Positions 36,351-62,091 are shown, counted from the stretch's first letter. The stretch is DNA of 64,000 nt from Patescibacteria group bacterium (GCA_035291665.1 DATDRP010000003.1:84549-148548), one strand, 5' to 3'. Notes: generated by a model from the sequence alone, not told the origin. Made by a program: numbers and translations.

Positions 36351-36474
36351 AACAAGCAATTATAACAGATTTAGGGAATCTAAATTTGATTGACACGAAT
36401 AAAAATGAATCAAATCTGATATGTCATCCTCCTTGGAGGGGTAACACCGATTCAGACTCAAGGGGGGATGTCAT
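36351..36474 (-). promoter_or_regulatory. TIR promoter-cassette element T1 (ATGACATCCCCCC...GGAGGATGACAT + ATCAGATTTGATTCA... + TGTTATAAT), oriented toward tRNA-Gln
   Basis: Family of five; see finding. Extended -10 TGTTATAAT at 36358-36366 (minus strand). Confidence 0.55.
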
Positions 36475-36527
36475 AGCAAAATTAAGCGTAAAATGTTAAA
36501 ATATCAACGTTTGTGAAGGTACACAAG

Positions 36528-36599
36528 GCCCCGTAGCTCAATGGTAGAGCAACACCCTTTTAAGGTGATGGTTGAAGGTTCGAGCCCTTCCGGGGTCAC
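36528..36599 (+). tRNA. tRNA-Lys (anticodon UUU)
   Basis: GGCCCCG-UA-GCUC-AAUGGUA-GAGC-A-ACACC-CUUUUAA-GGUGA-UGGUU-GAAGG-UUCGAGC-CCUUC-CGGGGUC-A. Confidence 0.75.
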
Positions 36600-36699
36600 C
36601 CTCCAGTAAGTTTTTTAAGACATCAAAAAAACCACACTTTAGTAAAATGAATTACTCAATGTGTGGTTTTTTCTTTTTCAGATTAACTCGAAGAAATTA

Positions 36700-37065
36700 T
36701 TAATATCTTCCGCCTCCTCTACTACCGCCTCTTGTATCACGTCTGAAACCGCCTCCGCCTCTATCTCCTCCGCCTCTATCTCCTCCTCCGAAATCTCTTC
36801 TGGGTCTTTCTTCCATAGGTCTTGCGACGTTGACGACAATCTTTCTGCCTTCAAGTTCTGTATCGTTATACAATTTGATTGCCTCTTCAGCAGCTTTCTC
36901 GTCTTCCATCTCTACAAAAGCAAAGCCTTTGCTTCGACCTGAATATTTATCTGTGATAATTTTAACGGATGCAACTTTTCCTGCCTTACCAAAAAGCTCA
37001 GTCAAAGAGTCTTCCGTCACAGTAAAAGGAAGATTTCCTACAAATAGTCTTTTTTTATTGTCCAA
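36700..37065 (-). CDS. RRM-type RNA-binding protein with C-terminal RGG/Gly-Arg-rich tail
   Basis: LFVGNLPF (RNP2) and KGFAFVEM (RNP1); GGGDRGGGDRGGGGFRRDTRGGSRGGGRY. Confidence 0.8.
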   Translation of the reverse strand: MDNKKRLFVGNLPFTVTEDSLTELFGKAGKVASVKIITDKYSGRSKGFAFVEMEDEKAAEEAIKLYNDTELEGRKIVVNVARPMEERPRRDFGGGDRGGGDRGGGGFRRDTRGGSRGGGRY

Positions 37066-37414
37066 AGTTTCTCACCACCGTTCTTAGCCTGAAGACGATC
37101 GGCTAACAATCAACACTTCAATTGAAGAAAATGTTTAAGTATTTTCCAAAATCAGTCTCAGACGAACTGTTCATCATAAATCGATGAACACATAAGGCAT
37201 TATACATCATATCCGCAAAAATATCATTCCTGAAGAGAAATCAATTCAAATCCGGAGGAAAAATAATATCTTTCAAGTTCTTGCCTGTTGCTTCTTCGAA
37301 ATTTCAAAAACCCTTCAACGTTTCAATCCGGGATGGTTTCTTTTGCAAGTGCTCGATACTTATAATTACCGATATAATATCATGTGGTAAGATATTTTAA
37401 AATCTATCGCAATT

Positions 37415-37527
37415 ATGACATCCTCCACGGACTAAAGTCCGTGGTTTCCCATGAGGGAGGATGACATATCAAATTCAATTCCTCCACGTTCAGTTTACAT
37501 GAACGTGGTTTCCTTGAAATTGTTATG
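37415..37527 (+). promoter_or_regulatory. TIR promoter-cassette element T2; its last 3 nt are the ATG of the 37525 gene
   Basis: ATGACATCCTCC-[CACGGACTAAAGTCCGTG]-GTTTCCCATGAGGGAGGATGACAT-ATCAAATTCAATTCC-[CCACGTTCAGTTTACATGAACGTGG]-TTTCCTTGAAATTGTTATG. Confidence 0.6.
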
Positions 37528-38118
37528 AAACTTAATTCCAAACAGCTTCGGGTGTCTGATCCGACCGAAGAGGAAGTAAAAAACTTAAAAAGAAACCCGA
37601 TTTATCTGGTTTTGGATGAAATAATTGATACATATAATATCGGATCTCTTTTTCGACTTGCTGATGCAACTGGGATTTCGAAAGTTTACCTCTGCGGTAA
37701 CATGGAATATCCTCCGTCCAGCCGGATTCACAAAGCAGCTGTCGGAACGGAAAATTGGGTACCCTGGGAGAAGAGAGATTCTACATTTGAAGTAGTTAAG
37801 GAATTAAAAGGAAAAAGCCTCCAGCCTGTACTCCCGGTTCGGAAGATTCCTACGCTCGGAGAAGGGCTTCCGGCCCGGAGGAGTGTTCAAATAATTTCCG
37901 TCGAACAATCTCCCAAATCTATTGCCTATTCCCTATTGCCCGGTGCCTTATCCCTCCCTTGCGCCGTTGTTGTCGGTAATGAAACTTCAGGAATCAGTAC
38001 GGAAGTTCTCAAGGAATCGGATGTTATTGTGGAGCTTCCGATGCACGGCATCAACAAATCCTTCAATGTCTGGGGTTCGGCGGCAGTTGTTATATATAAA
38101 ATATTGGAATCGATGTGA
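37525..38118 (+). CDS. SpoU/TrmH-family RNA 2'-O-methyltransferase
   Basis: SpoU methylase fold motifs (...GNETSGIS..., ...NVWGSAAVVIYKI). Confidence 0.75.
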   Translation: MKLNSKQLRVSDPTEEEVKNLKRNPIYLVLDEIIDTYNIGSLFRLADATGISKVYLCGNMEYPPSSRIHKAAVGTENWVPWEKRDSTFEVVKELKGKSLQPVLPVRKIPTLGEGLPARRSVQIISVEQSPKSIAYSLLPGALSLPCAVVVGNETSGISTEVLKESDVIVELPMHGINKSFNVWGSAAVVIYKILESM

Positions 38119-38592
38119 TCAAACTTTAGTCTCTAAGAAATATTTTCTAACCGAACTCACTAACTTTCTTCTGTCATTCCCCTCTCTGTACGCTAAATAA
38201 CGAAGGAGTGTGTCAGGGGATCTTTTTCTCAAAGTCTTCAAAACCATTGCCTTGATTTCAATTGTCGTTATCGTTTTTCGCTTCAGCCCTAGTAATTTAC
38301 TTTCAACTTCATTTGTAATTTTCTCGGTAAATTGACTGATATCTCCCCTGTCAACTCCTTTCTTATCAAGACATGAATGATAAATACTTGCATATAACTT
38401 TGCTCTGTTGTATTTTTGCTTCTTTCCTGAATTTTTAATTACTGTCAAATAAGAAAGGTGGATATACTCATATGTTGTAAAAGTATTCTCACAATCCAAA
38501 CATTTTCTTCTTCTCCACACTTTATTTCTTTTCGTGTTCGCCCGGGAATTTGTCACCATCACCTGATAACTACCACAAAAAGGACAATTCAT
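38119..38592 (-). CDS. nrdR: Transcriptional repressor NrdR (zinc ribbon + ATP-cone)
   Basis: MNCPFCGS...VTNSRA...RRRKCLDCENTFTTYE. Confidence 0.85.
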   Translation of the reverse strand: MNCPFCGSYQVMVTNSRANTKRNKVWRRRKCLDCENTFTTYEYIHLSYLTVIKNSGKKQKYNRAKLYASIYHSCLDKKGVDRGDISQFTEKITNEVESKLLGLKRKTITTIEIKAMVLKTLRKRSPDTLLRYLAYREGNDRRKLVSSVRKYFLETKV

Positions 38593-38704
38593 ATCAATAT
38601 ATAGTCATATAATATTTTATATTTTGAAAATTTTGCTTCCCCTGTCATAGCTTAAGAGCTATATCGTATCAAGTTCCCGTTATATCATTTTAACGTTAAG
38701 TGTT

Positions 38705-39088
38705 GTGAAAATAATAATAGCATATATTGACATGAAGGGGGTGATAACTATAAATCACGAAAACGAACCCCTCTTTGTTGTTCTTTTGGAAAGTGTTATA
38801 AGAAAAATTTCAACCACCGGGCTCCCGATTCAGGAATTCAACGAAATAAAAAACTTTCCTATCGGTTATGGAAAACTTGAAGAATTTGTGAAAGCAAACG
38901 TCGGACTTGGAAACTATGAGTGGAAGAAAGGGAAACTCTATAACTCTGAAAGATTCAATTATCTCGATTTGGACGATAAACACCTGGAATCATTAAGGTT
39001 GAGAGCGATAAAAGCGGGAATGTCTGAAGCTGAACTCGCAGGAAAATTGATTGCGGAGATACTGGATATCAGACTTCCCAATGTTTGA
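38705..39088 (+). CDS. Hypothetical protein (127 aa)
   Basis: ORF only. Confidence 0.35.
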   Translation: MKIIIAYIDMKGVITINHENEPLFVVLLESVIRKISTTGLPIQEFNEIKNFPIGYGKLEEFVKANVGLGNYEWKKGKLYNSERFNYLDLDDKHLESLRLRAIKAGMSEAELAGKLIAEILDIRLPNV

Positions 39089-39193
39089 CGGTTTGAAAGC
39101 TAATCCCAAGCACGATCTTTGGATTTTAATCACAACTTTGTCTGTTAAAAATATTATAGAAATTTAATATAGTTAACAATCCGATTTGAAGGT

Positions 39194-40024
39194 TTACAAC
39201 GCTGAAGTTACTGCGCTCTCCATATCCTTCCATGAATACGCTCCGGCAAAGTTTGTAGTATTAACATAAAATCCTGGAGTTCCCTTGACACCGATACTGG
39301 CCGCTAAGGTTGTATCACTCGACAGGCGATCGTCATACTTTCCGCTGTCTAAACAACTTTTCAACTTATTCTGATCAACTGCAGATTTCAAGAACTCGGC
39401 AATATCTCCGGACTTGGTCTTGTCATTTTTAACTTTATTATTTAAAAGATCATAACCGGCACTTGTGAAAAGAAGATTGTGTGCTTGCCAGAATTTACCT
39501 TCATCGAAAGCGCAATATAGAGCTTTCATCCCCATCTCTCCATTCCCGTGTCCCGGTGTATAAATATAAACCAGGGACGCTTTTCCTTGGTTAACCAGCT
39601 TCTCCATTTCGGGAACCGGAGCAACATATGTCCCACCCTCTGAAACCAGCTTAAACCGGTCTCCCGATTGATTATTCAATTCAGGATTGAGTCCGGATGC
39701 AATATGGCAATAAGGACAGCTTGGATCTTCAACGGCAACAAACAAAACCTTCTTTTTGTCATCACCAAATTTAATTAGGTCTTGACTGAACAATTTCTTG
39801 ATCTGGTCCTGGGTCACTGCAACTTGGCCTGCTTGAGCTTGAGGTTGGGCTTGCTGTGTATTATCGGTAGATGTTGAAGGAGTTGTCGAACCCCCTCCGC
39901 CTTTTTCAAGACTGCTGACTTTTTCCCATAAAATTCCGATAACAAAAGCCATTATAAACGAAAGGGCTATGAACATCGGAAGAAGTTTATCTGTGAGGCT
40001 TTTTACCTTTTCCAGTTTTGGCAT
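39194..40024 (-). CDS. Membrane-anchored DsbA-like thiol:disulfide oxidoreductase (CPYC active site)
   Basis: N-terminal TM; VEDPSCPYCH; thioredoxin fold. Confidence 0.7.
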   Translation of the reverse strand: MPKLEKVKSLTDKLLPMFIALSFIMAFVIGILWEKVSSLEKGGGGSTTPSTSTDNTQQAQPQAQAGQVAVTQDQIKKLFSQDLIKFGDDKKKVLFVAVEDPSCPYCHIASGLNPELNNQSGDRFKLVSEGGTYVAPVPEMEKLVNQGKASLVYIYTPGHGNGEMGMKALYCAFDEGKFWQAHNLLFTSAGYDLLNNKVKNDKTKSGDIAEFLKSAVDQNKLKSCLDSGKYDDRLSSDTTLAASIGVKGTPGFYVNTTNFAGAYSWKDMESAVTSAL

Positions 40025-40082
40025 GTGTTTATTTTGGTCATTCCAGGCTCTTTTGTCAAGGAGTGAAACCTTAAGTTAAACC

Positions 40083-41054
40083 CTACCAGCTGGGAGTTTC
40101 TTTGTCTAGAAACTTAAGTGCATCCATCCCAGCCATACAGCCAAAACCGGCTGTTGTGATTGCCTGCTTATAGTGCTGGTCATGTACTTCCCCTGCAACA
40201 AACACTCCTTCCAGGTTCGTTGAAGTGTGCTCATATACTTTGATATATCCCCGTTCGTCCATCTCTATAGGACCCTTGAAAACATCACTATCGGGTTTAT
40301 GTCCAATTGCCACAAAAATTCCGTCAACTTTGAGTTCGCTTACCTTATTATCCTTGTTATTAAAAATCTCAAGTTTTTCAACTTTCTTCTCACCTATAAT
40401 CTTTTTTACTTCGCTATTCCATAAAAATTTAATTTTTTTATTATCAAACGCTTTTTGCTGCATTGCAGCGGATGCTTTCAATGCGTCTCTTCTATGAATT
40501 ACTGTCACATCGATAGCATACTTCGTCAAAACTAATGCTTCAGTTAATGCCGAATCTCCTCCTCCGACAACCGAAACTACTTTATCTTTATAAAATGGAG
40601 CATCGCATGGAGCACAAGTTGCCACTCCCCGGCCGAGAAGTTCCTGTTCTCCGGGGACACCAAGCCATCTGTTACTTGCCCCTGTCGAAATAATAACTGA
40701 TCTTGCCATATATTCTACATCCCTGGTTTTTACCTTATAGGGTTTTGTGGAAAAATCAGTTTGGGTTACATTTTTTTCAACAAACTCAGCACCGAAGCGT
40801 TCAGCTTGGTTTCTCATGCGGGTCATAAGATCCGGTCCTTGGACCCCTTCCGGAAATCCTGGAAAATTATCAACTGTTGTTGTCAGCATTAATTGTCCTC
40901 CCCAATTTTCTCCGCCAACTATCAGAGTCGAAGCGGCTCCCCTGGTTGTATATATCGCAGCCGTAAGAGCAGCCGGACCGGAGCCGATAATAACAACATC
41001 CCAAGGTTGACCTTCCTTTGGTTTTTCTGCATACACAATCTTTGTAATTTCCAT
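40083..41054 (-). CDS. trxB: Thioredoxin reductase (NADPH)
   Basis: VVIIGSGPAALTAAIY FAD site; CAPCD redox motif; VVGGGDSALTEA NADPH site. Confidence 0.9.
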   Translation of the reverse strand: MEITKIVYAEKPKEGQPWDVVIIGSGPAALTAAIYTTRGAASTLIVGGENWGGQLMLTTTVDNFPGFPEGVQGPDLMTRMRNQAERFGAEFVEKNVTQTDFSTKPYKVKTRDVEYMARSVIISTGASNRWLGVPGEQELLGRGVATCAPCDAPFYKDKVVSVVGGGDSALTEALVLTKYAIDVTVIHRRDALKASAAMQQKAFDNKKIKFLWNSEVKKIIGEKKVEKLEIFNNKDNKVSELKVDGIFVAIGHKPDSDVFKGPIEMDERGYIKVYEHTSTNLEGVFVAGEVHDQHYKQAITTAGFGCMAGMDALKFLDKETPSW

Positions 41055-41135
41055 ACAAATTAATTTCGTAAGAACATGTAAAAACTATTCCGAAATATCT
41101 TTCGAAATGGTTTTACTTTAACAATAGGGCTCTCA

Positions 41136-41567
41136 CTACAAAGACGACATTCCACCGCTTGATGAGTCATCTTCGTCACTGGCTGCATCAGGAGGAGTTA
41201 CGGTTCCTGCGGTCGGAGTGTCCGGTGTCTCACTTGATGCTTCTTCAGTTGTTGTATCCACCACGCTTCCCATCGGAGCAACAACTGGTGCAGATGAACT
41301 TTCTGACACTCCTGTTGCCACGGATGGAACTTCAGGTTCTTCAACTGCCGGCATTACAGAAGGAGCATTTCCCATTGAAGGCATCTCAGCTACCGGTTTT
41401 TCCTCAGCCTGACTCACTACAGTAGGCTCTTGAGCCACACCCATTCCCACACTTCCACCCATCGGTGGCGTTGAACTTGCCACGGGTGTTGATTGTACCG
41501 GCTCATTCACAGTTGTTGTAGCCGTTCCCATCGGATTGACTGGTTTTTTTGGTTTCATCGGATCCAT
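41136..41567 (-). CDS. Pro/Thr/Ser/Val-rich low-complexity protein (143 aa), probably secreted/surface
   Basis: Composition only. Confidence 0.35.
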   Translation of the reverse strand: MDPMKPKKPVNPMGTATTTVNEPVQSTPVASSTPPMGGSVGMGVAQEPTVVSQAEEKPVAEMPSMGNAPSVMPAVEEPEVPSVATGVSESSSAPVVAPMGSVVDTTTEEASSETPDTPTAGTVTPPDAASDEDDSSSGGMSSL

Positions 41568-41721
41568 TTATTATCACCTCCAAACTCCTTAAAAACAAAA
41601 AAGTATATACCCCGGTATACTTGCACTCCAATTTAAAGGAGTCGGTGTTCCGGGGAACACACTTTAGTAATAAGTTAATCTTTTAAAAAGTACATTTCCC
41701 CACTCAACAATTTGCGTTAGC

Positions 41722-42042
41722 TCATAATACTTTTTTAATCAAATCTTCAAATGCTTGTTTTCCTGCAAATCCTATTTGTCTGCCTATTTCCACACCTTCC
41801 CTGACCATAATTGTAGTAGGAATCGACATGACATCATATTTTTGAGCAACAGATTGATTTTCATCAACATTAATTTGAGCGACTATCAACTTATCTTTGA
41901 AGGTGTCAGATAGCTCTTCCAAAGCAGGTTCTGCCATTTTACAAGGTCCACACCAATCCGCATAAAAGTCGACCAAAACTGGAAGCTTTGATTTTATAAT
42001 TTTATCCTCGAAATCCGAAGCGCTTACTTTTATTATAGTCAT
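41722..42042 (-). CDS. trxA: Thioredoxin
   Basis: WCGPCK active site; 106 aa. Confidence 0.9.
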   Translation of the reverse strand: MTIIKVSASDFEDKIIKSKLPVLVDFYADWCGPCKMAEPALEELSDTFKDKLIVAQINVDENQSVAQKYDVMSIPTTIMVREGVEIGRQIGFAGKQAFEDLIKKVL

Positions 42043-42102
42043 AACTTAAATTTAATATTCGCGTAAAACACTATACAATCTTCTAAAAGTTTAAGTCAAC
42101 CA

Positions 42103-43140
42103 TCAAATAAATGCTATGGGCAATGTCAGTACCGACAGCATATAAAACAGCTTCCGATTTTTAAGATTTTTATACAAAACGATAAGTGCAAATGGGTAAT
42201 AATACGAAAAATATCTTCTGAACTCTGGAAGATACGGACAGTCAACAAATCCTACGGAAAAAACAAATAATGCCAGGAAAATAGATATTAATTTCACAAA
42301 ATGCACATCTCCCTTAATGAGAAAGTCATCTTTGTGTCGCAGGATCTGATACAATACCCAAACCGAAAAGATTATATACATACTTCCCGATATAATAATT
42401 CTCCATTGGCCTTTGTCCATCAAAATCAGATAATCTTTTGCAATCTGAAGAAGAGCAAAGGAGTTTCCGCAAATTTCACTGTAAACATTAAACTGATAAA
42501 ATCCGTCACCGAATAATTTGATATTTGAAAAATATAATATTATGGGAAAAAAACTCACCCCTAATAAACTCACAAACAACTCTTTATATCTTTTTCCCTT
42601 GAGGAGGATTATCGCAATTGGTAAATAAAAAATAATTGATACCGGCCGAAATAAATAAGAAAGACCGGAAATTATACTCGCCCAGAGGAACCTCTTTTTC
42701 ATAAAAAGTATAAATATGACAAGCAAAAATATAGCCACGGCAGATTCTGTTGAAATTTTACTGGTTTGATTAAAAACTATCGGAGGGAAAATTGTTACCA
42801 AAAAACTGTAAAGGGGATTTTTGGTTAGTCGGTAAGAAAAAATGAAGAGAAGTAATAGTATTAATATTCCAAGTACGAGTCCGGATATGTATATATTCCC
42901 GAAAATTAAGGAAATCAGATATATGGATACCGGAATTCCCGGAAAATATCTCGAATCAGCGAAAGACAAATCTTTCGGATAATCTCCCCCTTTCAGTGAC
43001 TGCGTATATGTAAAAAATCTTTCCTGTTCGAAGTTATTTATTAGTAAATCAGGATGAAGAATGTTTTTATAATACAAGAGTCCGACATGGAATAATATTG
43101 TTAATGTTAGAAATAAAAAAAATCGTTTGGAGAATGTCAT
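42103..43140 (-). CDS. Polytopic membrane protein (345 aa), function unknown
   Basis: Many hydrophobic helices. Confidence 0.45.
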   Translation of the reverse strand: MTFSKRFFLFLTLTILFHVGLLYYKNILHPDLLINNFEQERFFTYTQSLKGGDYPKDLSFADSRYFPGIPVSIYLISLIFGNIYISGLVLGILILLLLFIFSYRLTKNPLYSFLVTIFPPIVFNQTSKISTESAVAIFLLVIFILFMKKRFLWASIISGLSYLFRPVSIIFYLPIAIILLKGKRYKELFVSLLGVSFFPIILYFSNIKLFGDGFYQFNVYSEICGNSFALLQIAKDYLILMDKGQWRIIISGSMYIIFSVWVLYQILRHKDDFLIKGDVHFVKLISIFLALFVFSVGFVDCPYLPEFRRYFSYYYPFALIVLYKNLKNRKLFYMLSVLTLPIAFI

Positions 43141-43166
43141 AAATTAAGTATATAATTTCATTTGTT

Positions 43167-43724
43167 ATGTTAGCTAGGTTACAAAATATAATTGTTTGTT
43201 TTTCAATTATTATCGTTCTTTTCTCTTTGCACTTAACGCTATTTACCGGCGAAGTACTCGCGGTCTGCCCTGTCTGCACAATAGCGGTTGGCGCCGGACT
43301 GGGAATTTCCCGAGCCCTGGGGATTGATGATGCCGTCACCTCCGTCTGGATCGGAGGACTGATCCTTTCTATGTCCTTTTGGATGATTGACTGGCTGGAG
43401 AAAAGATTTCAGTCTAAGTACAAGTCAAAGAAGAAGTTGTTTAGTACTATAGTCTTTTTATCGATTTTCATTTTAACTTTAGTTCCGCTCTGGTACGGTA
43501 AGTTTATTGGCCGGGCTAACAATTCCCTTTGGGGAATAGACAAAATTATATTCGGTACTTTCTGTGGATCTTTGGCTTTTATAATTGGTAAATGGGCAGA
43601 CGCAAAAGTCCGGGAAGTTAAAGGCAAACAGCTTTTTATTTACCAAAAGGTTGTTTTTCCTGTAGCATCATTGCTACTTCTTAGTATCATATTAGACATA
43701 ATAATTACAAAGTTTTCATTGTAA
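43167..43724 (+). CDS. Membrane protein (185 aa), function unknown
   Basis: Hydrophobic helices; CPVC motif near N-terminus. Confidence 0.4.
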   Translation: MLARLQNIIVCFSIIIVLFSLHLTLFTGEVLAVCPVCTIAVGAGLGISRALGIDDAVTSVWIGGLILSMSFWMIDWLEKRFQSKYKSKKKLFSTIVFLSIFILTLVPLWYGKFIGRANNSLWGIDKIIFGTFCGSLAFIIGKWADAKVREVKGKQLFIYQKVVFPVASLLLLSIILDIIITKFSL

Positions 43725-43793
43725 AAAAATTAATAGTATTTATTCGCAGTAATTTGTATAATTCGTATAAATTCGTATATTAGTATCAAAATT

Positions 43794-44390
43794 ATGAAAA
43801 TTAATAATTACAAAAACCTTCTCGACAAAGTCGAACGGGTTACAAAACAAAAGGATCTTGATCTTTCCTCCGGAGAAGATCTCTCCATCGGAATAATGAA
43901 TCTCATTTCCATAGAGGAGCATTTATTTTTCACTTATAACAAAACCAAAGACGCCAAATTCATAGACCTTCTTGATGAAGTAAGAAGAATGCGGACAGAA
44001 CTTCTTAAGGAGATCATTAAGGATTATAAAGGCGAAGTTTGGTGCATCAGTAAACACTTACTGGCGGCTTCGATGAGAATAATGGAAGTTGGAACAAAAG
44101 AACTGAAGAAAGCCTCCGGCCCAGAGGGCCTCAAGCCCGGCGGGGGTGAACAAAAGAAAAAAGCCGCTTCCCTGTTTCAAAAGTCTTATGATCTGTATTC
44201 CCTTTTCTGGGGACTCAATTTGGGAGTTGTAAGTACGAAAGACGCAATACGTGATACGAAAGAGGGAGAAAGTATTTCGCTAACCAGCGATCCTACGTCC
44301 GACAACTTACATCCTACAACCAAGAACGAATCGGTTTTTTCGAAATTGGGAAACCTAGTACAAAAAGCGATTGATTGTTGTAGGGAATAA
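43794..44390 (+). CDS. Hypothetical protein (198 aa)
   Basis: ORF only. Confidence 0.4.
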   Translation: MKINNYKNLLDKVERVTKQKDLDLSSGEDLSIGIMNLISIEEHLFFTYNKTKDAKFIDLLDEVRRMRTELLKEIIKDYKGEVWCISKHLLAASMRIMEVGTKELKKASGPEGLKPGGGEQKKKAASLFQKSYDLYSLFWGLNLGVVSTKDAIRDTKEGESISLTSDPTSDNLHPTTKNESVFSKLGNLVQKAIDCCRE

Positions 44391-51723: not shown

Positions 51724-51895
51724 ATGACATCCTCCCCGCTCTTGCTAGCGGGGTTTCCTCCAAAGGAGGATGACATATCAGAATTCAATTCCCTGCACCA
51801 TCCGGTGCAGGACCAAGTCCCATGCCGAATGGCATGGGGCATCCCCGATTGAATCGGAGTTTTCTTGAAGTCTGTTATAATTGAAAAAATTTATG
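51724..51895 (+). promoter_or_regulatory. TIR promoter-cassette element T3, ending TGTTATAAT-N12-ATG of the 51893 gene
   Basis: ATGACATCCTCC-[CCGCTCTTGCTAGCGG]-GGTTTCCTCCAAAGGAGGATGACAT-ATCAGAATTCAATTCC-[CTGCACCATCCGGTGCAG]...[CCCATGCCGAATGGCATGGG]...TCTGTTATAATTG. Confidence 0.6.
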
Positions 51896-54260: not shown

Positions 54261-54599
54261 TCAAATTTTCTTTACAAACTTTCTTGCGTATCCTCCAAGT
54301 ACCGGATATTCAAATTCCTCACCTTTCCAAGCTTTATAAATCAAAATCAACCATGAAACAAAAGACAATACACCCAGAAGCCCGGACAGCGGCGCTAAAA
54401 TTATTGTAACTGCCAAAATCCAACCCAGTATAAAATAAAATCCAAAAACGACAATTGACTGCATCGCATGGAAGCGCACGAAGGAATTTTTCTCAAGCAA
54501 CAAAAAGGCTACACCTGTTATTGGGCCCAATAAATAAGTTAATCCTCCTGCAGTATTTTTCGGTAATCCTGTAACCAACTTCTCTTCTTTTTCAGGCAT
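54261..54599 (-). CDS. Small membrane protein (DUF4870-like), SD GAGGGGTGGTGA
   Basis: Two TM helices. Confidence 0.45.
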   Translation of the reverse strand: MPEKEEKLVTGLPKNTAGGLTYLLGPITGVAFLLLEKNSFVRFHAMQSIVVFGFYFILGWILAVTIILAPLSGLLGVLSFVSWLILIYKAWKGEEFEYPVLGGYARKFVKKI

Positions 54600-54702
54600 A
54601 AATTATCACCACCCCTCGCCCGCCGATCAATTTTGGCACGAGGCGTGTATGAATAATACTGAAAAACCAAGTGCGAAAATAAGGCGGGTTCGCTCTTCTA
54701 CT

Positions 54703-55668
54703 CTATAGTAATTCTATCAGAAAAAATACAATGTACACTCCAAGAAGAATCCCCGCTTCCCATCTGTCCAATCTCTTTTTTGTTCTTATAAAATAAGAAA
54801 AAAGAAGATAAACAAAAATAAACGTAAACCCGGGAATAATATACCTCATAGGTATTAATGATTTAACCGGATTAATTAATACCGATAAGCCAACTATCAA
54901 TGTAGTATTAGCAGCAATTGACCCCAAAAGATTCCCGATAAACATTTCCGGTTCTTTGTCTTTCAATGATTCCAGAGAAAACGCAAATTCGGGTAAGGAT
55001 GTTCCTATTGCAAGGATAAATAGTCCGATTACGAAAATGGGTATGTTATTTTTTTCGGCTAATAGAGATGAAAACTTTACAATCGTGTCAGCTGAAAAAA
55101 GCATCAGAGTGATCCCGATTGTTACAGCTGCCAGATTTTTCCATTTCTCTTCGGCAAAATGTTCAACTTTTTTTATTAATTTAGTGAAGGTTAAGCCTTT
55201 TTGGTGCTCTTCTAAAGCTCTTTGATGATAATGTCTGAAAAAATTTAGAATGTAAAATATATATACCGAAATTAAAATAACACCGTCTATTCTGGATAAA
55301 TTTCCATCTACCAATAATATATAGGGTATTATTCCGCAAATAAAACCCATTCCGATCATTTTATGGGTTAAAGACTGGGAAATTACCACTCTTCCCGAAA
55401 TTAAAGCAGCCCCTGCTCCTATTAAGGCAATATTTGCAATATTGGATCCGAGTGTTACTCCCAAAGAAAGTCCCGGCTTCCCTTCAACGGCAGAGGTTAT
55501 ACCCACAATTAGTTCCGGAAGTGATGTTCCGATGGCAATAAGAACTGCAGAAAGCCCGACTAATCCAGTAGTCCCGGCTATCTTCTTAAGGGCGATAACC
55601 GCCATATCTGCAGATTTTATTAAGACTATAGAAAAAATAATTATTGATGCTGTTAATAAGTACGTCAT
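54703..55668 (-). CDS. Ca2+/cation antiporter-family (CaCA, YrbG-like) Na+/Ca2+ exchanger
   Basis: Two alpha-repeats GTSLPELIVGITSA / GNLLGSIAANTTLIVG. Confidence 0.8.
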   Translation of the reverse strand: MTYLLTASIIIFSIVLIKSADMAVIALKKIAGTTGLVGLSAVLIAIGTSLPELIVGITSAVEGKPGLSLGVTLGSNIANIALIGAGAALISGRVVISQSLTHKMIGMGFICGIIPYILLVDGNLSRIDGVILISVYIFYILNFFRHYHQRALEEHQKGLTFTKLIKKVEHFAEEKWKNLAAVTIGITLMLFSADTIVKFSSLLAEKNNIPIFVIGLFILAIGTSLPEFAFSLESLKDKEPEMFIGNLLGSIAANTTLIVGLSVLINPVKSLIPMRYIIPGFTFIFVYLLFSYFIRTKKRLDRWEAGILLGVYIVFFLIELL

Positions 55669-55801
55669 AACAATTTCAAGGAAACCCCGCCCAGGGCGGG
55701 GAGGTCTCCGACTCAGAGAGTCTCTGACTCGGAGAGATTTGAATTTGATATGTCATCCTCCCTCACGGGAAACCACGGACTTTAGTCCGTGGAGGATGTC
55801 A
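55666..55801 (-). promoter_or_regulatory. TIR promoter-cassette element T4; ends exactly at the ATG of the exchanger gene (GTTTCCTTGAAATTGTT-ATG)
   Basis: Reverse complement ATGACATCCTCC-[ACGGACTAAAGTCCGT]-GGTTTCCCGTGAGGGAGGATGACAT-ATCAAATTCAAATCTCTCCGAGTCAGAGACTCTCTGAGTCGG...CCCCGCCCTGGGCGGGGTTTCCTTGAAATTGTTATG. Confidence 0.6.
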
Positions 55802-55844
55802 TAATAATTACCCTTTAATGCTACCATAATAATTTTTAACAATT

Positions 55845-57599
55845 CTACTTATTCTGAAGCTTAAAAAGAGTCTTTATTTCGGAGAGTGTTGTAGCTTCGT
55901 TTACCCCCTTGTCAGCTCTGAATTTCACCAACCTCGGAAACCGAAGTGCATATCCGCTCGTATGAATTGGGCTTTCAGTCAGATCGTCACCTGCAAGTTC
56001 GACTACAAATTTAGGATTAACCCAAAAGTCAGGTGTGTAGTTTTTATGAATTTCATACTCTTTTGGCATTTCTTTAACAATTTCTTTTTCCAAAAGTTTT
56101 TTATAACTTCTGAATTCTACATCCGAAAGGCCCGTTCCAATCTTAGTCAATGTTAAAATCTTACGCCCACTCTTACTCTTACCGTTAGTGTTACTTATTA
56201 CTCCCACCAAAAACTGCCCAAGACCAAAAGATGCCCTTTTTCCCTTACCTACGGTATATCCCATCACAATACAGTCAACCGTATCGGATAACTTCCCCTC
56301 TGATGCCTCCTCCTGCTTCATTTTTACCCAGCGCCAGCCCGTTCTTCCGGGAACGTAGTTGGCGTCATATTTTTTAACGATAACTCCCTCAAGTCCGAGT
56401 TTTATATTCTTCCGATACTCTCGATTAATTACTTCAGGTTCTTGAGTCAGAAGTGTCTCATCAAGAACAAGTAACTTATTTCCTTTCCTTACAATCTTTT
56501 CCAAAACCTTCCGTCTTTCAAAATAAGGCTTATCCATAAAACTTACCCCATCACAAGAAATTACATCAAATACCTGAAAACTCAATGGAATTGCTTTTGC
56601 AGTTAAGTCAATCTGATGCACTCGCCGTCTTTTCATTGTCGTTTGAAAATCCAGTAGACGCTTCATTTCCGGATCCATCCCAACCGCTTCGGAATCCAGT
56701 ATCGCTTCATCACAATTTAAGATCTCACCGATCCTCTGAAGTTCCGGAAACATTTCTGTAACGTCATTCGAGTTTCTTGTAAATGCTTTAATAAATTTCC
56801 CCCGCTTGAAATGAACCAAAACCCGAAGGCCATCAAATTTCGGTTCAACAAAAACCTTTCCCATTTTCTTAATCATTTCAGCGGGACTTTTCAATCTTTG
56901 CGCAAGCATCGGAAGCACTGGTATTCCAACTATCGGTTTAACATTCTTAACCGTCCTTTCAATTCCTTTTTCCTTTACACTTCGTGCAAGTATTCCAACA
57001 TCGGGTAAGATCACATATGCTTCCTCGATTGTCTTACTCTTACTCTTACCCCCTGTTTCCATCCAGGAAAGTGCGTCAAGAATTGTCTTATCTGAAAATC
57101 CCAACCTCAACTTACCAACCGGAATTCTTGCAATAAACCTTGCGCTCAAAGGATCAACTCTTTCTAAAAGTTCTGCCATTTGACCGATTTTTCTTTCGAC
57201 ACTTTTCTCTCCCTCATCCCGGGCAATTTCCAATAGGTTTTCATATATTGTTAAAACATTTAAACCCGTCTTACTCTTACTCTTACTTAAACTCTCCGCT
57301 ACTATTCCCAAATCTCCTTTCTCCTTATATTCTCGTGTCACGTCCTTTGAATCCCGTCCATAAGCTTTCGCAATTGCCTGAAGCATCATTTTTTCTGCTA
57401 AATTGAAGACAACACTTTTATAATTTGGAGCTAAAATTCCAAGAGAAAGATAACAAATTTTATCAATTTCATCAAGCGTTGCTTTTTTATACAAATCGGA
57501 TAAAATTTCTGTTATTTTCAAACGCGATGAAGTCTCTTCCAGTTTTTTCAGGTATTCTGCAAATTCGGAGAAAGTCATATTCCACCACGAATTATACAA
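55845..57599 (-). CDS. lig: ATP-dependent DNA ligase (584 aa) carrying three in-frame (GTAAGA)3 microsatellites encoding KSKSK(T)
   Basis: EPKFDGLRV (KxDG); repeats tcttactcttactcttac at 57031-57050, 57270-57287, 56170-56183. Confidence 0.85.
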   Translation of the reverse strand: MYNSWWNMTFSEFAEYLKKLEETSSRLKITEILSDLYKKATLDEIDKICYLSLGILAPNYKSVVFNLAEKMMLQAIAKAYGRDSKDVTREYKEKGDLGIVAESLSKSKSKTGLNVLTIYENLLEIARDEGEKSVERKIGQMAELLERVDPLSARFIARIPVGKLRLGFSDKTILDALSWMETGGKSKSKTIEEAYVILPDVGILARSVKEKGIERTVKNVKPIVGIPVLPMLAQRLKSPAEMIKKMGKVFVEPKFDGLRVLVHFKRGKFIKAFTRNSNDVTEMFPELQRIGEILNCDEAILDSEAVGMDPEMKRLLDFQTTMKRRRVHQIDLTAKAIPLSFQVFDVISCDGVSFMDKPYFERRKVLEKIVRKGNKLLVLDETLLTQEPEVINREYRKNIKLGLEGVIVKKYDANYVPGRTGWRWVKMKQEEASEGKLSDTVDCIVMGYTVGKGKRASFGLGQFLVGVISNTNGKSKSGRKILTLTKIGTGLSDVEFRSYKKLLEKEIVKEMPKEYEIHKNYTPDFWVNPKFVVELAGDDLTESPIHTSGYALRFPRLVKFRADKGVNEATTLSEIKTLFKLQNK

Positions 57600-57626
57600 A
57601 ATTTAATACCAATCTACTAATGAATG

Positions 57627-57869
57627 TCATTTGATGGAGCCGATGAGATAGGTTGAAAAAAACAGGTAACCTAAAACAACAATTGCCAGAAATGTAATTC
57701 CGAAAATAAGACTTATCAGCCCGTGCTCATGGTTGTGAATTAATTTATTGGTTCCATCCCCTATCAAAACCATCCCGAAAAGAGCGGGTAATACTAAAAT
57801 TAAATAAATAAATTGCGGATCATTCGGATTCATAATACAAGCTTGAAAGTAACAAGTGACAAGTAACAC
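57627..57869 (-). CDS. Small two-helix membrane protein (80 aa)
   Basis: Hydrophobic helices. Confidence 0.35.
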   Translation of the reverse strand: MLLVTCYFQACIMNPNDPQFIYLILVLPALFGMVLIGDGTNKLIHNHEHGLISLIFGITFLAIVVLGYLFFSTYLIGSIK

Positions 57870-57903
57870 GTTCTTTCTTTTGCAACTTGTTGCCTTTTAC
57901 ATG

Positions 57904-58971
57904 TTACTTATTACTGGCCATCACATATCTTGCTGCTTTGGTTCGGCCTTCTTTCTTTATTATTTTCTTTTCGATCAAATAATTCAAATCGCGAAGGACT
58001 GTATCTTCGGAAACCATTGGGAGAACATCTTTCAGATTTTGCATTGCAGCGTATCCCTTCTCCCCCATATATTCTATCAACTTCATCTGTCTTTCGGTGA
58101 GAGCAACTTGCATCCCGATTACCCCTTTCAATCTTGTATCGATTGACAGTTTTCTGATCTTTTCTTTTATTTTTGAAAGTTCAATCGCAACCACCCCGGT
58201 AAAATATTCAAGCCAGGATGTTACGTCTTTTTCAAAAATATCGCCTTCTTTGGAATCCGTATTTGAAAATGCTTCATAATAATCCCCCGGATTTTCATCA
58301 AAATGTTCTTCCAATGCAAAAAACTTTTTAATGTCATAGCTTTCCCGTAAAAGTATCAAGGTGGAAAAAGCTCTGATAGTCCTGCCGTTTCCTTCAACAA
58401 AAGGATGGATGGAAACCAAAATATAATGCGCGATACCTGCCTTAATTATTGGATGGATTTCCTGCGATTGAGGGTCATTAAGCCAATCGATAAAATCTTC
58501 CAGAAGGTATGGGACTTTCTCGTATGATGGCGGACGGAAAACAACTTCCCCGCTGCCTTCTTCCTTTAAAACTACCTGAGTCTTTCTGATGACGCCAACT
58601 TTTTCTTCAGGAACAACGCGTCTGACTGTTTCCCGATGAATCTCCGTAAGCATGTTAATGTCGTATCCGCCCCTTTTCACTGAAAGTTCATCCAAAAGTC
58701 CTACTACATTACGATAATTTATGACTTCCTGGATATCCCGTTCCTTAGCAAATATCTCAATTCCTTCCAGAACTTGTTTTGTCTGATCGATATTCAAGTC
58801 ATTTCCCTCGATATGGGTCCCGTGATGAACAGTTCGAAGCATCGCGTCACTTTTGAATCTTTTTTCGTACATCGGAACCAAAGGTGCGTTTTCAATTACC
58901 TCTTTGGCGGCCTCAATGGCACCGATGTTTTTCAGAATCTTATTTGTAATTACGAATTTTGGAATATACAT
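57904..58971 (-). CDS. Fic/Doc-family protein (AMPylation-type) with C-terminal winged-helix
   Basis: HPFVEGNGRTIR matches HPFx[DE]GNGR. Confidence 0.85.
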   Translation of the reverse strand: MYIPKFVITNKILKNIGAIEAAKEVIENAPLVPMYEKRFKSDAMLRTVHHGTHIEGNDLNIDQTKQVLEGIEIFAKERDIQEVINYRNVVGLLDELSVKRGGYDINMLTEIHRETVRRVVPEEKVGVIRKTQVVLKEEGSGEVVFRPPSYEKVPYLLEDFIDWLNDPQSQEIHPIIKAGIAHYILVSIHPFVEGNGRTIRAFSTLILLRESYDIKKFFALEEHFDENPGDYYEAFSNTDSKEGDIFEKDVTSWLEYFTGVVAIELSKIKEKIRKLSIDTRLKGVIGMQVALTERQMKLIEYMGEKGYAAMQNLKDVLPMVSEDTVLRDLNYLIEKKIIKKEGRTKAARYVMASNK

Positions 58972-59090
58972 AATATAAAGGGTAAGTATAAGTTTAAGTT
59001 GAAGGATAAATACATGGTGTTACGATCTTAAACCTGGACTTACTTATTATTGATATATTACGCATTTCCTGCGGAAAATACAAGATGTCT

Positions 59091-60707
59091 TCATAATGAA
59101 AACAGCAAATATTTATCGTCTTCGAACTCAAAGTGTTTGTAATATTTTTTGATTTTTTCCAGTCTTCCCTCTTCCACCAGATCCTTCCAAATAAGAACAT
59201 ATTTGACGCTCTTACTTTTTATCAAAGAATCAAATTCCGGACTCGGAAAACTTTGCCAGTACAAATTTCTTACCTCGTTCCAACTTGGTGGTTCGAACCC
59301 TGAAGCCCCGCCTAATAAATGTTTTCTGTGATAAAGAGAGTAAACCATTCTTTCTGTTTCAACTGCTGCTTTTTCCCCATGCGCCCAGGAGTAAACCGGT
59401 AGTTCCAAAAGTACTCCACCGGGCAATTTATTTATAAATTGATAAACTTTCGGATAATCAGCAGTCTTTTTGAATTCGAAATAAGGAATTTTCTTGGATA
59501 GTGGAAGAAGTGCCATTATAACGACGAGAGTAAAAATAATCTTGTTTTTAATATTAACTTTTGTAGTTTTTAATAAATCGGTAAGTTTTAAGCAAAAGAT
59601 GAATCCTGCGGCAAATAACGCTGGCATAAGCCATCTTCCCGGAGATCTAAATGCCGAAAATCCAGGGATTATATAATAAAAAATTCCGTAAGGAAGAGGA
59701 ACGAAGATCTTACCGAAGATTTTGAATGTCGAACCCGCAATTTTAAGAACCGGTCCCAAGCTCAATAATAAACTTACGAGTAAAAGTATTTTCAACCAGC
59801 CAAAATCCCCATCTTTACTTTTTTTATTTATGATTAAACCCATAATCATTAGTCCTGCAAAAATTCCATCCGTTAATAGGTTTTTCAAAAGTAAATCGAT
59901 CCCCAATGAAAAGTGGGCAGCATCCCGGATAGACCTGACATAATCAAATTCATTCGATACTGCCAGATAAGCTCTTGCCGGCAGCAGCATAACTAATAAA
60001 GCCGTCATCAAAAAAAGCAGGAAATTAACTTTCTCTTTCAAAATTATTTTTACATTCCCGAAAGAAATTAAAATGATTGCCAATAATGCAAAATAAACTC
60101 CCATCGGACTTTCCCACATTTGGATTCCCCAAAAAAGTGCTGATATCAAAAGTGTCGTGATACGTCTGCTCTTGAAATATTTCCAGAAACAATAAATTGA
60201 AATCAACCACCATTGCATTGTCCACATTTGAAGATGGACAACAAATCCAAGTCTTATCACGGAAACCCCGAGTGCTAAAGAAGTAATTAATGAGGCTGTT
60301 TTATTCTTTGTTACTTCAAAAAACCAAAAATAACAAATTAAAATAGATGTAATTTGTCCGAATAAAAGTGTCGTCCCAACAGCAATATTCGGCTGGCTGA
60401 AAATCTTTACCGGTAAATAAGATATAAACCCCGAAGGAATAAGCATATCTGAATACGCCATTGTATTTTTATTCGGATAAAATATATTTCCGTTAAAAAT
60501 ATTCGCCAGATCATTAGGAATTTTTTGAACTGTCTGGTTGAGGATCCAAACAATCATTACCCCATCCCACTTTTCAGCAATACGTTTTGTCGGATCTTTA
60601 AGGATCGGCCAAAGACTCCAAATAGATACCGTAACGATGAGAAATAAACTAAGAAAATGTTTTCTGAGAAATTCTATCACTACAGGAAGTATATACTTCG
60701 GATTCAA
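59091..60707 (-). CDS. Large polytopic membrane protein (538 aa), possible membrane glycosyltransferase (family 39/83-like)
   Basis: More than 12 predicted TM helices, soluble C-terminal domain. Confidence 0.4.
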   Translation of the reverse strand: MNPKYILPVVIEFLRKHFLSLFLIVTVSIWSLWPILKDPTKRIAEKWDGVMIVWILNQTVQKIPNDLANIFNGNIFYPNKNTMAYSDMLIPSGFISYLPVKIFSQPNIAVGTTLLFGQITSILICYFWFFEVTKNKTASLITSLALGVSVIRLGFVVHLQMWTMQWWLISIYCFWKYFKSRRITTLLISALFWGIQMWESPMGVYFALLAIILISFGNVKIILKEKVNFLLFLMTALLVMLLPARAYLAVSNEFDYVRSIRDAAHFSLGIDLLLKNLLTDGIFAGLMIMGLIINKKSKDGDFGWLKILLLVSLLLSLGPVLKIAGSTFKIFGKIFVPLPYGIFYYIIPGFSAFRSPGRWLMPALFAAGFIFCLKLTDLLKTTKVNIKNKIIFTLVVIMALLPLSKKIPYFEFKKTADYPKVYQFINKLPGGVLLELPVYSWAHGEKAAVETERMVYSLYHRKHLLGGASGFEPPSWNEVRNLYWQSFPSPEFDSLIKSKSVKYVLIWKDLVEEGRLEKIKKYYKHFEFEDDKYLLFSL

Positions 60708-60769
60708 AATATTATCAAATTGACTTTTGGGCAGATAACATTCGGGTTTAGGGATTAATTATTGACTCA

Positions 60770-61630
60770 TTATCCTGATATCTTCTTCAGAGTTTTCGGT
60801 ATTTGATCCGACAAGTCGTCAGAATTGTAATTGACGCCAACCATTTTATGAAGTTCATCTGCAGCAGCTTTTATCAGATAACTTGCGGCGGCGGCGGCCA
60901 AAAAAGGATCGTTTTTCGCCAAAAGCCCAACCGTAAGACCTGCCAAAATATCTCCGGTTCCTCCCTTAGTCAAACCCGGGTTTCCGCCTGTAACAGCTAC
61001 TGTTTCCGATGGAGATGCAACATTTGTTTCCGGTCCCTTGGCAACTATAATACAATTATATTTCCTAGCCTCTGCCTGAATAAGTTTTACGTCTTGAGTT
61101 TTTAGTTTAAAAAGCATTTCCATTTCTTTTCTGTTCGGCGTTATTATCGCCCTTGGCGGTATCCACTTTGCATCCATCGTCTGCAAACTCCCCGCATCGA
61201 TTACCCACTTTTTGGACTTGAACTTGGTTAGTAGTCTTTCTGTTATTTCTCTAGTTTTTTTTCCCTCTCTATCATTTGAAATTTGGAATTTGTCATTTGG
61301 AATTTGAGATTCACTAGTGAACCGCATAAGTCCCGGTCCCATAAGAACCGCGTCTGACTTTTTAATATATGCTTCAACATCGTTCCAAGGAACCCAAATG
61401 AAAGACATTAATTCAGATTTAATATTATTAGCAATGTCGCCTACGCTGGGCTCCGGCGAACTAAAAAATACCATATCAACAATTCTTGACGCCGCTTTAA
61501 CAGCTAAAAGAGGTGCGCCATGGAAAAGCGACGACCCGCCGATAATAGTAACTTGCCCGTTTTGCTCTCCTAACGAGTTGTTTTTCGGTTTAAACAGTTT
61601 GTGTAACTCGTTTTTATCAAAGGTTTTCAT
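60770..61630 (-). CDS. nnr: ADP-dependent NAD(P)H-hydrate dehydratase (YjeF C-terminal domain / Nnr2); start moved to MKTFDKNE
   Basis: GGSSLFHGAPLLAVKAASRIVDMV; IDAGSL; GGNPGLTKGGTGDILAGL. Confidence 0.75.
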   Translation of the reverse strand: MKTFDKNELHKLFKPKNNSLGEQNGQVTIIGGSSLFHGAPLLAVKAASRIVDMVFFSSPEPSVGDIANNIKSELMSFIWVPWNDVEAYIKKSDAVLMGPGLMRFTSESQIPNDKFQISNDREGKKTREITERLLTKFKSKKWVIDAGSLQTMDAKWIPPRAIITPNRKEMEMLFKLKTQDVKLIQAEARKYNCIIVAKGPETNVASPSETVAVTGGNPGLTKGGTGDILAGLTVGLLAKNDPFLAAAAASYLIKAAADELHKMVGVNYNSDDLSDQIPKTLKKISG

Positions 61631-61647
61631 ATTATCTTGAAAATGGA

Positions 61648-61791
61648 TTAGCCCCGAACAATCACCCCATCGACGCAAACACGTAGTATTTGGGAGATGG
61701 CAAGATCTGTGCGGGGCCCGTTATCTTCCCCATTCGATACCGGTGATGGTTGATATAACTTTTTCAAATCATCGAGATCAAAAATCTTCAT
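61648..61791 (-). other. Upstream mimic ORF: 47 codons MKIFDLDDLKKLYQPSPVSNGEDNGPRTDLAISQILRVCVDGVIVRG; its first ~26 residues are a diverged copy of the Nnr N-terminus (MKTFDKNELHKLFKPKNNSLGEQNGQ); reads through element C and stops 17 nt before the nnr ATG
   Basis: Codon-by-codon reverse-complement translation from ATG 61789-61791; 14/26 identities with the downstream gene's N-terminus. Confidence 0.55.
61652..61722. ncRNA. Copy C of the structured ~75-nt element, 22 nt upstream of the nnr ATG
   Basis: Core ...CCCCATCGACGCAAACACGTAGTATTTGGGAGATGGCAAGATCTGTGCGGGGC; outer stem GCCCCG/CGGGGC; CCATC/GATGG covaries with CCTTC/GAAGG of copies A and B. Confidence 0.55.
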
Positions 61792-61931
61792 ACTAATATT
61801 ATAATTGTTATAGCACACTCAAAACAAAATGTCGTATTTCTTTGAGTTTGATATATAGGAATTCTATGTTTGTTAAACAAAATGTCAGAAGTGACAACTT
61901 GTTATAATATAACTATGTAATATTATTTACC

Positions 61932-62091
61932 ATGACATCCTCCACTTTACTTATGTCCGTGGTCTCCCCTGAGGGAGGATGGTATACCGTGCCTGCCGGC
62001 AGGCAGGTCAGAGTTCAATTCTCTCCGAGTCAGAGACTCTCTGAGTCGGAGACCTCCCCGCCCAGGGCGGGGTTTCCTTGAAATTGTTATG
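61932..62091 (+). promoter_or_regulatory. TIR promoter-cassette element T5; ends in the ATG of the 62089 gene (GGGGTTTCCTTGAAATTGTT-ATG)
   Basis: ATGACATCCTCC...GAGGGAGGATGGTAT-[CCTGCCGGCAGG]-AGTTCAATTCTCT-[CCGAGTCAGAGACTCTCTGAGTCGG]-[CCCCGCCCAGGGCGGGG]-TTTCCTTGAAATTGTTATG. Confidence 0.6.

Follow-up and report, generated by a model that had tools for sequence, protein, structure and literature searches.

Gene-less repeats of Woesebacteria as probable IS200/IS605-type transposon derivatives with fused ends

The transposase TnpA cuts the IS200/IS605-type element IS608 after two sites, TTAC at 19 nt 5' of the left hairpin and TCAA at 10 nt 3' of the right one, and the element inserts 3' of its target without duplicating it. 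The guides of IS608 are the four bases 5' of each hairpin foot (left guide G_L AAAG for TTAC, right guide G_R GAAT for TCAA), and their code joins g1 to c-3, g2 to c-4 and g4 to c-1; at g3 the protein holds an A, and the A at c-2 stays unpaired. The Geobacillus IS200/IS605 elements ISGst2 and ISGst5 have TTTAT and TTCAT as targets or transposon-adjacent motifs (TAMs), and gene-less copies resembling palindrome-associated transposable elements (PATEs) are described in the same paper. HgcC RNAs, which occur in Methanocaldococcus and other AT-rich hyperthermophiles, were earlier linked to IS200/IS605 right ends and to PATEs. Here, we analysed a family of hairpin-bearing repeats with five copies (E1 to E5) in a 64,000-nt stretch of a Patescibacteria group bacterium (GCA_035291665.1, DATDRP010000003.1:84549-148548), hereafter the window. 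Its carriers are all Woesebacteria or other Microgenomates, which belong to the candidate phyla radiation (CPR), and no description of such Woesebacteria repeats was found in the searchable literature.

We interpret E1 to E5, with a probability of about 0.72, as non-autonomous derivatives of IS200/IS605-type single-strand transposons in which the left end is fused to the right end without any gene, making them PATE-like MITEs (miniature transposable elements with inverted repeats). An earlier sequence-only reading of the window had described them as promoter/start cassettes that bring the downstream gene an extended -10 and a leaderless-type start, with an operator-like dyad that might be the signature of one regulator.

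Element ends, target and guides

The copies were named E1 (36474-36351, minus strand), E2 (from 37415, plus), E3 (from 51724, plus), E4 (55802-55666, minus) and E5 (from 61932, plus). A covariance model, R1, was built from 40 copies from other genomes and run on the window without filters; just E1 to E5 were found, at the five places given by the sequence-only reading, and the next match had an E-value of 0.12. The 12-mer ATGACATCCTCC matches the window 18 times with up to two mismatches against 3.9 expected, and 10 of the 18 are the paired arms of E1 to E5. All three exact matches to the 3' box TTTCCTTGAAATTGTTATG are likewise in copies, namely E2, E4 and E5. The box ATCARAWTCAATTCC, previously described as shared, is exact in E2 alone; allowing up to three mismatches adds E4 (two mismatches) and E1 (three), misses E3 and E5 and brings the total number of matches only to chance level, and the family consensus at this position is ATCAGCGTTCAATTCATC. 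The hairpin ACGTTCAGTTTA[A/C]ATGAACGT of E2 does recur twice within the 23S group I intron, as had been reported (Table 1).

The element proper extends from ATGACAT to CTGYT (ends ...CTGTT or ...TTGTT), and the bases after it, ATAA or ATG(A), are target DNA of the flank. Orthologues of the window TrmH gene that lack the element start with the same ATGAAACTTAATTCC; in L058, L067, L087 and L078 TrmH begins ATGAAACT without any element, and L058 reads TATAAT-ttccaatat-ATGAAACTT, the same as in the window gene. Contrary to what had been proposed, the ATG is therefore not supplied by E2, which lies between a native-looking TAAAAT and the TrmH start codon. The same spot has received a second insertion in L093, whose close relative L091 is empty with flanks that are 92-96% identical: the empty site reads ...GATAAACCG^ATGAAAAAACTT and the filled one ...GATAAAACA[element]ATGAAAAAACTT, with no target duplication. 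Three copies lie inside open reading frames (ORFs) and measure 108 nt, or 36 codons, when the ATAA is excluded, which is the same as the 36-residue gap in a Mur ligase alignment. In 46 of 49 copies the flanking bases are ATAA plus A or T, which the top strand reads as (A/T)TTAT; in E2, E4, E5, L036 and L093 they are ATGA (TCAT). Conservation is one-sided, ATAA being near-invariant and the other side showing only a preference for T. Insertion is thus 3' of a fixed target and without duplication, as in IS200/IS605 elements.

On the top strand, which is the complement of the strand used in the sequence-only reading, the target TTAT (canonical) or TCAT (E2, E4 and E5) stands outside the element and is followed by 17 nt (AACAGCATTCAAG plus a guide, AAAA or GAAA), the left-end hairpin, a linker, the guide GAAA, the right-end hairpin and 10 nt ending in TCAT. 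The distance from the junction to hairpin 2 is 17 nt in 34 of 40 copies, and that from hairpin 1 to the end is 10 nt in 26 of 40. All of the guide and site combinations fit the IS608 code: GAAA with TCAT at the right end, AAAA with TTAT at the canonical left end, and GAAA with TCAT at the left end of E2, E4, E5 and L036. The single A/G difference between the left guides mirrors the single T/C difference between their sites, guide type is associated with flank (Fisher p 1e-6 to 1e-5), and the remaining left-guide variation is mostly at the non-pairing g3. Of six defining features of IS200/IS605 elements that were examined, four were found: hairpins at both ends, a fixed target without duplication, asymmetric geometry and guide pairing. 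The change from TTAT to TCAT would be a natural case of guide-programmed retargeting of an IS200/IS605-type element, which was earlier known from the engineering of IS608.

Three other readings of the insertion site were tried and rejected. A target duplication of ATGA or TTATGA was ruled out by canonical copies, whose left ATGA differs from their right ATAA, and the plus strand as the active strand was ruled out by the conserved flank being on the other side. General insertion at leaderless start codons was also ruled out, as -10 boxes are not enriched 5' of the element's 5' ATG (15/56, flat profile).

We infer that a Y1 (HUH) TnpA acting in trans would cut after the target and after the terminal TCAT, a single-stranded circle would be excised, and the circle would be re-inserted 3' of another TTAT or TCAT picked by left-guide pairing, the target not being duplicated. 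The ends of the parent element would read TTAT|AACAG...GGATGTCAT. The predicted circle junction GGAGGATGTCATAACAG was matched only by chance, at two places within the coding sequence of viruses, and the domain-1 pattern had no viral match.

Several observations weigh against this interpretation. The hairpins are mostly perfect, variable in sequence and exchanged between copies, one having been replaced by a hairpin that is also present in the 23S intron, in contrast to the defined imperfect palindromes recognised by IS608 TnpA. G-T pairs in the long-range helices favour the strand opposite to the proposed active one, and the left-end distance is 17 nt where IS608 has 19. Common ancestry of E2, E4 and E5 could account for part of the association between guide and target, and two loci break the simple guide rule: L054 has the guide AACA with an ATGA flank, and in L093 an inner ATAAGC precedes an extension of 39 nt. 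In the latter locus (1136-1176), the ~39 extra nt stand between the element end (CTGTT|ATAAGC) and the TrmH ATG and end again in AATCTGTT; the extension might be what is left of an older copy, or flank brought along via an alternative left cleavage site. A crude motif search of ~0.96 Mb of Microgenomates fragments revealed no Y1/HUH transposase or TnpB-like ORF, only PilB-type ATPases being matched, and no full-length element with the ends of this family, and no left and right ends flanking a gene, were seen in the same fragments; the orphan left ends that were found are 5'-truncated copies rather than ends of a longer insertion sequence. Finally, GC skew has one sign over 32-64 kb while the copies are oriented - + + - +, so that the strict lagging-strand bias of IS200/IS605 elements is not seen.

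Distribution, structure and competing readings

An exact scan for both arms with one genome per species yielded 55 loci in ~20 genomes, nearly all of them Candidatus Woesebacteria or other Microgenomates/Patescibacteria assemblies, with at least 16 copies in one genome. We extracted 59 copies, of which 49 have a recognisable 3' end; the modal length was 112 nt as first delimited, and the consensus is ATGACATCCTCC-[hairpin 1]-GGTTTCCCTCYAAAGGAGGATGACAT-ATCAGCGTTCAATTCATC-[hairpin 2]-GTTTTCTTGAATGCTGTTATAA. R1 also recovers more diverged copies within loci already carrying copies. TrmH-anchored relatives, picked irrespective of the element, gave three R1 matches in 478 kb against five in the 64-kb window, and copy density therefore spans from a few per Mb up to ~80 per Mb in the window.

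Occupancy differs between orthologous sites (L038 and L039; L036 and L008), and the window TrmH, CaCA and E3 sites show filled/empty differences from L055, L042 and L045. Other small modules are nested inside family copies. Together with lineage-specific copy numbers, this presence/absence polymorphism and nesting support a mobile, duplicative unit, on which point the sequence-only reading was right. No allele free of E2 (left flank, N{0,30}, right flank) was matched in a scan of metagenome contigs, and the exact TrmH protein had matches in the same strain only.

Several observations on related modules were made along the way. The ~20-nt palindrome GCCTGCCGGCAGGCAGG occupies the same nested position in E5 and in L051 (~505-525), is nested at a different position in L046 (773-788) and stands alone in L004 (5579-5598), and thus looks like a separately mobile mini-hairpin. 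The LBWP01 copies carry AAGCAAAGCTTAAGATTTTATCAA repeats nested after GACATAT. A second repeat family, GATTGGATTCTTGCTTCAT-CCACGGACTWWAGTCCGTGG-TTTTCGCAGAKAAATTCAAT, is present in Woesebacteria GW2011_GWA1_39_21 at L005 (4050-4145), L019 (7342-7437), L020 (3680-3788), L032 (6561-6660) and L016 (3865-3900); its hairpin is hairpin 1 of E2 and E4, and its layout is like the left-end half of the E1-E5 family. The 1116-nt contig L057 (JGI 3300002120) begins one base before the ATGACAT end of E2, which indicates that the repeat breaks metagenome assemblies, and the family is a source of both assembly breaks and mis-called start codons in Microgenomates genomes.

The helices covary strongly: 96.3% of cells are paired and 16 of 37 pairs are changed on both sides, while none of 500 shuffles was as good and slid controls reached 38-47%. 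Compensatory changes are seen in hairpins 1 and 2 (helices 2 and 5), and the 12-bp outer stem is invariant only because the copies were selected by that stem. The inverted arms described in the sequence-only reading are real, but the arrangement is not that of a single inverted repeat with loose hairpins behind it: the ATCA..TTCAA box pairs with the TTGAA..TGTT box, so that the element consists of two compound hairpins. Folded as DNA, each strand also forms this pair of compound hairpins (z-scores -5.9 to -7.5).

This covariation could also mark an element that is primarily a functional RNA, its copies being retained for that role: from the minus strand a small RNA of HgcC type or a scaffold resembling omega-RNA, or from the plus strand a structured leader or a terminator. 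Sub-threshold HgcC matches and the last hairpin, which with its T-rich tail is terminator-like in E2 to E5, point the same way; moreover, PATEs often encode omega-RNAs, and a PATE-derived RNA is expressed in Halobacterium. We nevertheless consider this improbable, since single-strand DNA transposition accounts for the same covariation and the HgcC scores are below the Rfam threshold (27-34 against 50 bits). There is no conserved promoter 5' of the element in the family copies, its contexts are mixed (the upstream gene is co-oriented in 16 copies and opposite in 27), and a motif search of the fragments showed no TnpB or IscB.

Less probable still is a classical cut-and-paste MITE with terminal inverted repeats (TIRs), a DDE transposase and target duplication, on the model of Correia elements. 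The 5' ATGA and the 3' ATAA are consistently different and thus not a duplication, none is seen between L093 and L091, and the flank is conserved on one side only; the asymmetric 17/10 geometry and guide complementarity are unexpected for this type, even though both ends share the imperfect inverted decamer TTATRACA and the size, copy number and promoter-like ends resemble those of Correia elements.

Promoters, gene starts and surrounding sequence

Most genes in the window have the layout TAnnnT-N5-10-ATG and very few have a Shine-Dalgarno sequence (e.g. 15459, 33169, 42106, 44454, 51347 and 52448), and leaderless mRNAs seem to be the rule in the source genome. The absence of Shine-Dalgarno sequences, once taken as a mark of the genes behind E1 to E5, is thus genome-wide.

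Amongst the copies that end in TATAAT, 14 of 23 have the start of an ORF of at least 40 codons within 14 nt, typically 6-7 nt away, compared with 1 of 23 copies that end in TATAAA (p = 8e-5); one further TATAAT-ending copy precedes a tRNA and several precede short ORFs. In about half of the copies, the 3' end makes TGnTATAAT 3-14 nt from a start codon, the spacing of a leaderless -10. This much of the proposed delivery of an extended -10 stands. When the element was deleted in silico, however, TATAAT was restored from the flanks in 20 of 26 and TGnTATAAT in 7 of 26 TATAAT-class copies (10 of 25 and 0 of 25, respectively, in the TATAAA class), and deletion of E1 restored TGCTATAAT. The insertions therefore split pre-existing promoters, the displaced T being replaced by the ...CTGYT end of the element, which also adds TG. 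TGYT|ATGACAT junctions were also considered as remnants of tandem elements, which is argued against by their restriction to TATAAT-class copies; given this restriction, we read them as split promoters.

Across the family, crude ORF calls give 22 copies with a co-oriented downstream gene and 24 with an opposite one. Two copies lie in frame within intact genes, and both are read on the element minus strand; in 30 of 40 copies this strand has a frame without stops. One is in a P-type ATPase (L042) with a full Pfam domain set and an end-to-end alignment with Listeria Ca-ATPase, where the element encodes residues ~347-384; the other is in a Mur ligase (L021) with 36 extra residues relative to its L033 homologue. 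A profile search with the element-encoded peptide matched only spurious ORFs of 22-76 residues, and no further coding insertions were established.

The least probable reading is that of a promoter/start cassette under one regulator, which had expected a fixed orientation and no copies in coding regions: although all five window copies point at a downstream gene (E1 from ~115 nt away, without abutting tRNA-Gln as had been stated) and ORF starts cluster behind TATAAT ends, orientation is mixed family-wide, copies occur within intact genes, element-free orthologues already have, or the flanks restore, the ATG and most of the -10, the leaderless layout is genome-wide and copy number is very uneven among genomes, and nothing supports an operator or regulon.

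Under the transposon interpretation, insertion would split -10 boxes because TTAT is the complement of ATAA in TATAAT. As TTAT and TCAT complement the -10 core and ATGA in genomes with tiny spacers and mostly leaderless genes, surviving copies would be those at start codons (^ATGA) or within -10 boxes (T^ATAAT). In the latter, the ...CTGYT end would substitute for the displaced T and add TG, so that a hybrid extended -10 would remain and the gene would probably still be expressed. The repeat would thus resemble a promoter cassette because of the complementarity of its target, compact and largely leaderless CPR genomes having few other harmless sites.

Behind the TCAT-type insertions of the window (TrmH, CaCA and the ORF at 62089), no -10 was found at the right distance from the ATG. 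A transcript from a displaced native -10 would start at the element's own ATGACAT. E2 hairpin 2 with the tail TTTCCTTGAA has a terminator-like score on the plus strand.

A more elaborate scenario, which we regard as doubtful, is that of a 'promoter-safe' transposon. Evolution may have made its left end resemble the TGnT half of an extended -10, so that insertion at T^ATAAT would be harmless or would even strengthen the promoter, and the retargeted subfamily (guide A to G, TTAT to TCAT) would integrate at +1 (AUG) of leaderless genes. These would become leadered mRNAs with the AUG held in the left-end stem behind a terminator-like hairpin, an attenuator or processing-dependent switch, and top-strand transcripts might, as RNAs of HgcC or omega-RNA type, guide a nuclease in trans.

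The coordinates of the window features are listed in Table 1.

Table 1. Positions of the repeat copies, their parts and adjoining features in the window
Feature	Position	Strand	Remarks
E1, element proper, diverged copy	36364..36474	-	R1 51 bits; top strand in the IS200/IS605 sense is the window plus strand
E1 target ATTAT	36359-36363	+	top-strand flank of E1
Hybrid -10 TATAAT of E1	36359..36364	-	first T from element, ATAAT from target
tRNA-Gln	36166-36237	-	~115 nt downstream of E1 hybrid -10
E2, element proper, 110 nt, TCAT-targeting subfamily	37415..37524	+	R1 92 bits; directly 5' of native TrmH start codon
E2 right-end tail	37415..37424	+	AGGATGTCAT on top (minus) strand; 10 nt from hairpin foot to end, cleavage site TCAT
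E2 hairpin 1 (right-end hairpin) CCACGGACTAAAGTCCGTGG	37425..37444	+	
TTTC after E2 hairpin 1	37445-37448	+	guide GAAA on top strand
E2 3' arm GGAGGATGACAT	37456..37467	+	pairs with 37415-37426 as 12-bp closing stem of right-end compound hairpin
E2 hairpin 2 (left-end hairpin)	37484..37508	+	also twice in 23S intron
E2 left-end terminus TTTCCTTGAAATTGTT	37509..37524	+	first four bases are guide GAAA (top strand); pairs with 5' box 37468-37482
Target ATGA (top-strand TCAT), outside E2	37525..37528	+	native start codon of SpoU/TrmH methylase gene; gene call, PF00588; orthologues
TAAAAT, probable native TrmH -10	37398..37403	+	parted from ATG by E2; element-free TrmH orthologues have TATAAT or TGTTAAAAT 7-9 nt 5' of ATG
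E3, element proper, 153 nt, canonical TTAT type	51724..51876	+	R1 57 bits; three hairpins in left-end half
Hybrid -10 TATAAT of E3	51876..51881	+	TG at 51873-51874
94-aa ORF after E3	ATG at 51893	+	
E4, element proper, 134 nt, TCAT subfamily	55669..55802	-	R1 53 bits; adjoins CaCA exchanger start codon (55666-55668, -)
E5, element proper, 157 nt, TCAT subfamily	61932..62088	+	R1 30 bits; right-end arm diverged
Palindrome GCCTGCCGGCAGGCAGG nested in E5	61992-62007	+	
107-aa ORF adjoining E5	ATG at 62089	+	
Hairpin ACGTTCAGTTTAAATGAACGT, two copies in 23S group I intron	9042..9111 (9042-9062, 9091-9111)	+	match to E2 hairpin 2

Between E1 and tRNA-Gln, a hairpin with a T-tract (GCCGAGTCAAACTCGGC, 36281-36297) was found on the strand opposite the tRNA; it is like hairpin 1 of the L047 copy. 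The 23S gene (8672-13477, minus strand) is 4.8 kb long and holds the group I intron (9007-9284) and other insertions, which carry internal repeats of 140-174 nt (8530-8669, 11201-11340 and 12953-13092; 11700-11873 and 12491-12664). The 16S gene (27182-28823, minus strand) is 1642 nt long and lies 13.7 kb from the 23S gene. A tRNA-Ile is on the opposite strand (15241-15465 region), followed by two repeats resembling a tRNA 3' half (15327-15370 and 15422-15465). C/T-rich tandem arrays of 7-8-nt units (CTTCTACT, CACTTCTCACTAC and others) were detected at 1169-1240, 15516-15637 and 17851-17896, and mirror-image G-rich arrays at 7507-7737 and 18007-18042, so that arrays flank the rRNA region on both strands. 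Two further repeats are intergenic or at gene starts: one of 67 nt in three copies that are 78-90% identical (4098-4164, 18857-18923 and 61649-61715) and one of 71 nt in two copies that are 79% identical (18733-18803 and 54619-54689). An Rfam scan of the repeat region at 18600-19000 gave sub-threshold matches only.

Comparison with known systems

For every copy tested, the best Rfam match was HgcC (RF00062), on the top (minus) strand of the element with the full-length model, at 26.8-34.3 bits (E 1e-4 to 6e-3), whereas the gathering score is 50 bits, and by this threshold the element does not belong to HgcC. Both hairpins and the adjoining unpaired motifs are matched, namely GAUGAnnUGAAC and GGGG-AGGAnGUCA 10 nt after the last hairpin, and both systems have G+C-rich hairpins in an A+T-rich genome. 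The differences are that the central 38 model positions are unmatched and that the host is bacterial. The likeness suggests that HgcC RNAs, long unexplained, may be fused transposon ends.

Small repeats of other bacteria share single aspects of the family. Correia elements of Neisseria and other promoter-bearing MITEs are likewise small, abundant and mostly intergenic, and their ends create sigma-70-type promoters for neighbours. Correia elements have true TIRs and make a TA target duplication, whereas the Woesebacteria element has only the imperfect TTATRACA and no duplication, and its -10 is a hybrid of element and split target. The pneumococcal SPRITE, BOX and RUP repeats are similar in their terminator-like hairpins and in being nested in each other, but host and sequence are unrelated; to our knowledge, no IS200/IS605-type anatomy has been reported for them. 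Rickettsia palindromic elements (RPEs) are also palindromic repeats of ~100-150 bp that occur in frame in conserved protein genes and are read through, as was found here; the Woesebacteria element is in coding sequence in only 2-3 of ~70 copies, and the likeness is one of behaviour.

The closest systems are thus the IS200/IS605 elements IS608, ISGst2 and ISGst5 and the PATEs. The Woesebacteria element differs from them in that no tnpA, tnpB or iscB was found near it, in its near-perfect and interchangeable hairpins, in ends that are compound hairpins closed by a further 10-12-bp stem, in showing no clear replication-strand bias, in its CPR host and in a left-end terminus that rebuilds an extended -10. 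It shares with the IS200/IS605 elements the subterminal hairpins at both ends and a fixed short target with insertion 3' of it and no duplication; with IS608 a right site 10 nt 3' of its hairpin, a left site at a similar distance (17 nt against 19) 5' of its hairpin and four-base guides that follow the same code; with ISGst2 and ISGst5 the targets TTTAT and TTCAT; and with PATEs the fusion of left and right ends without genes.

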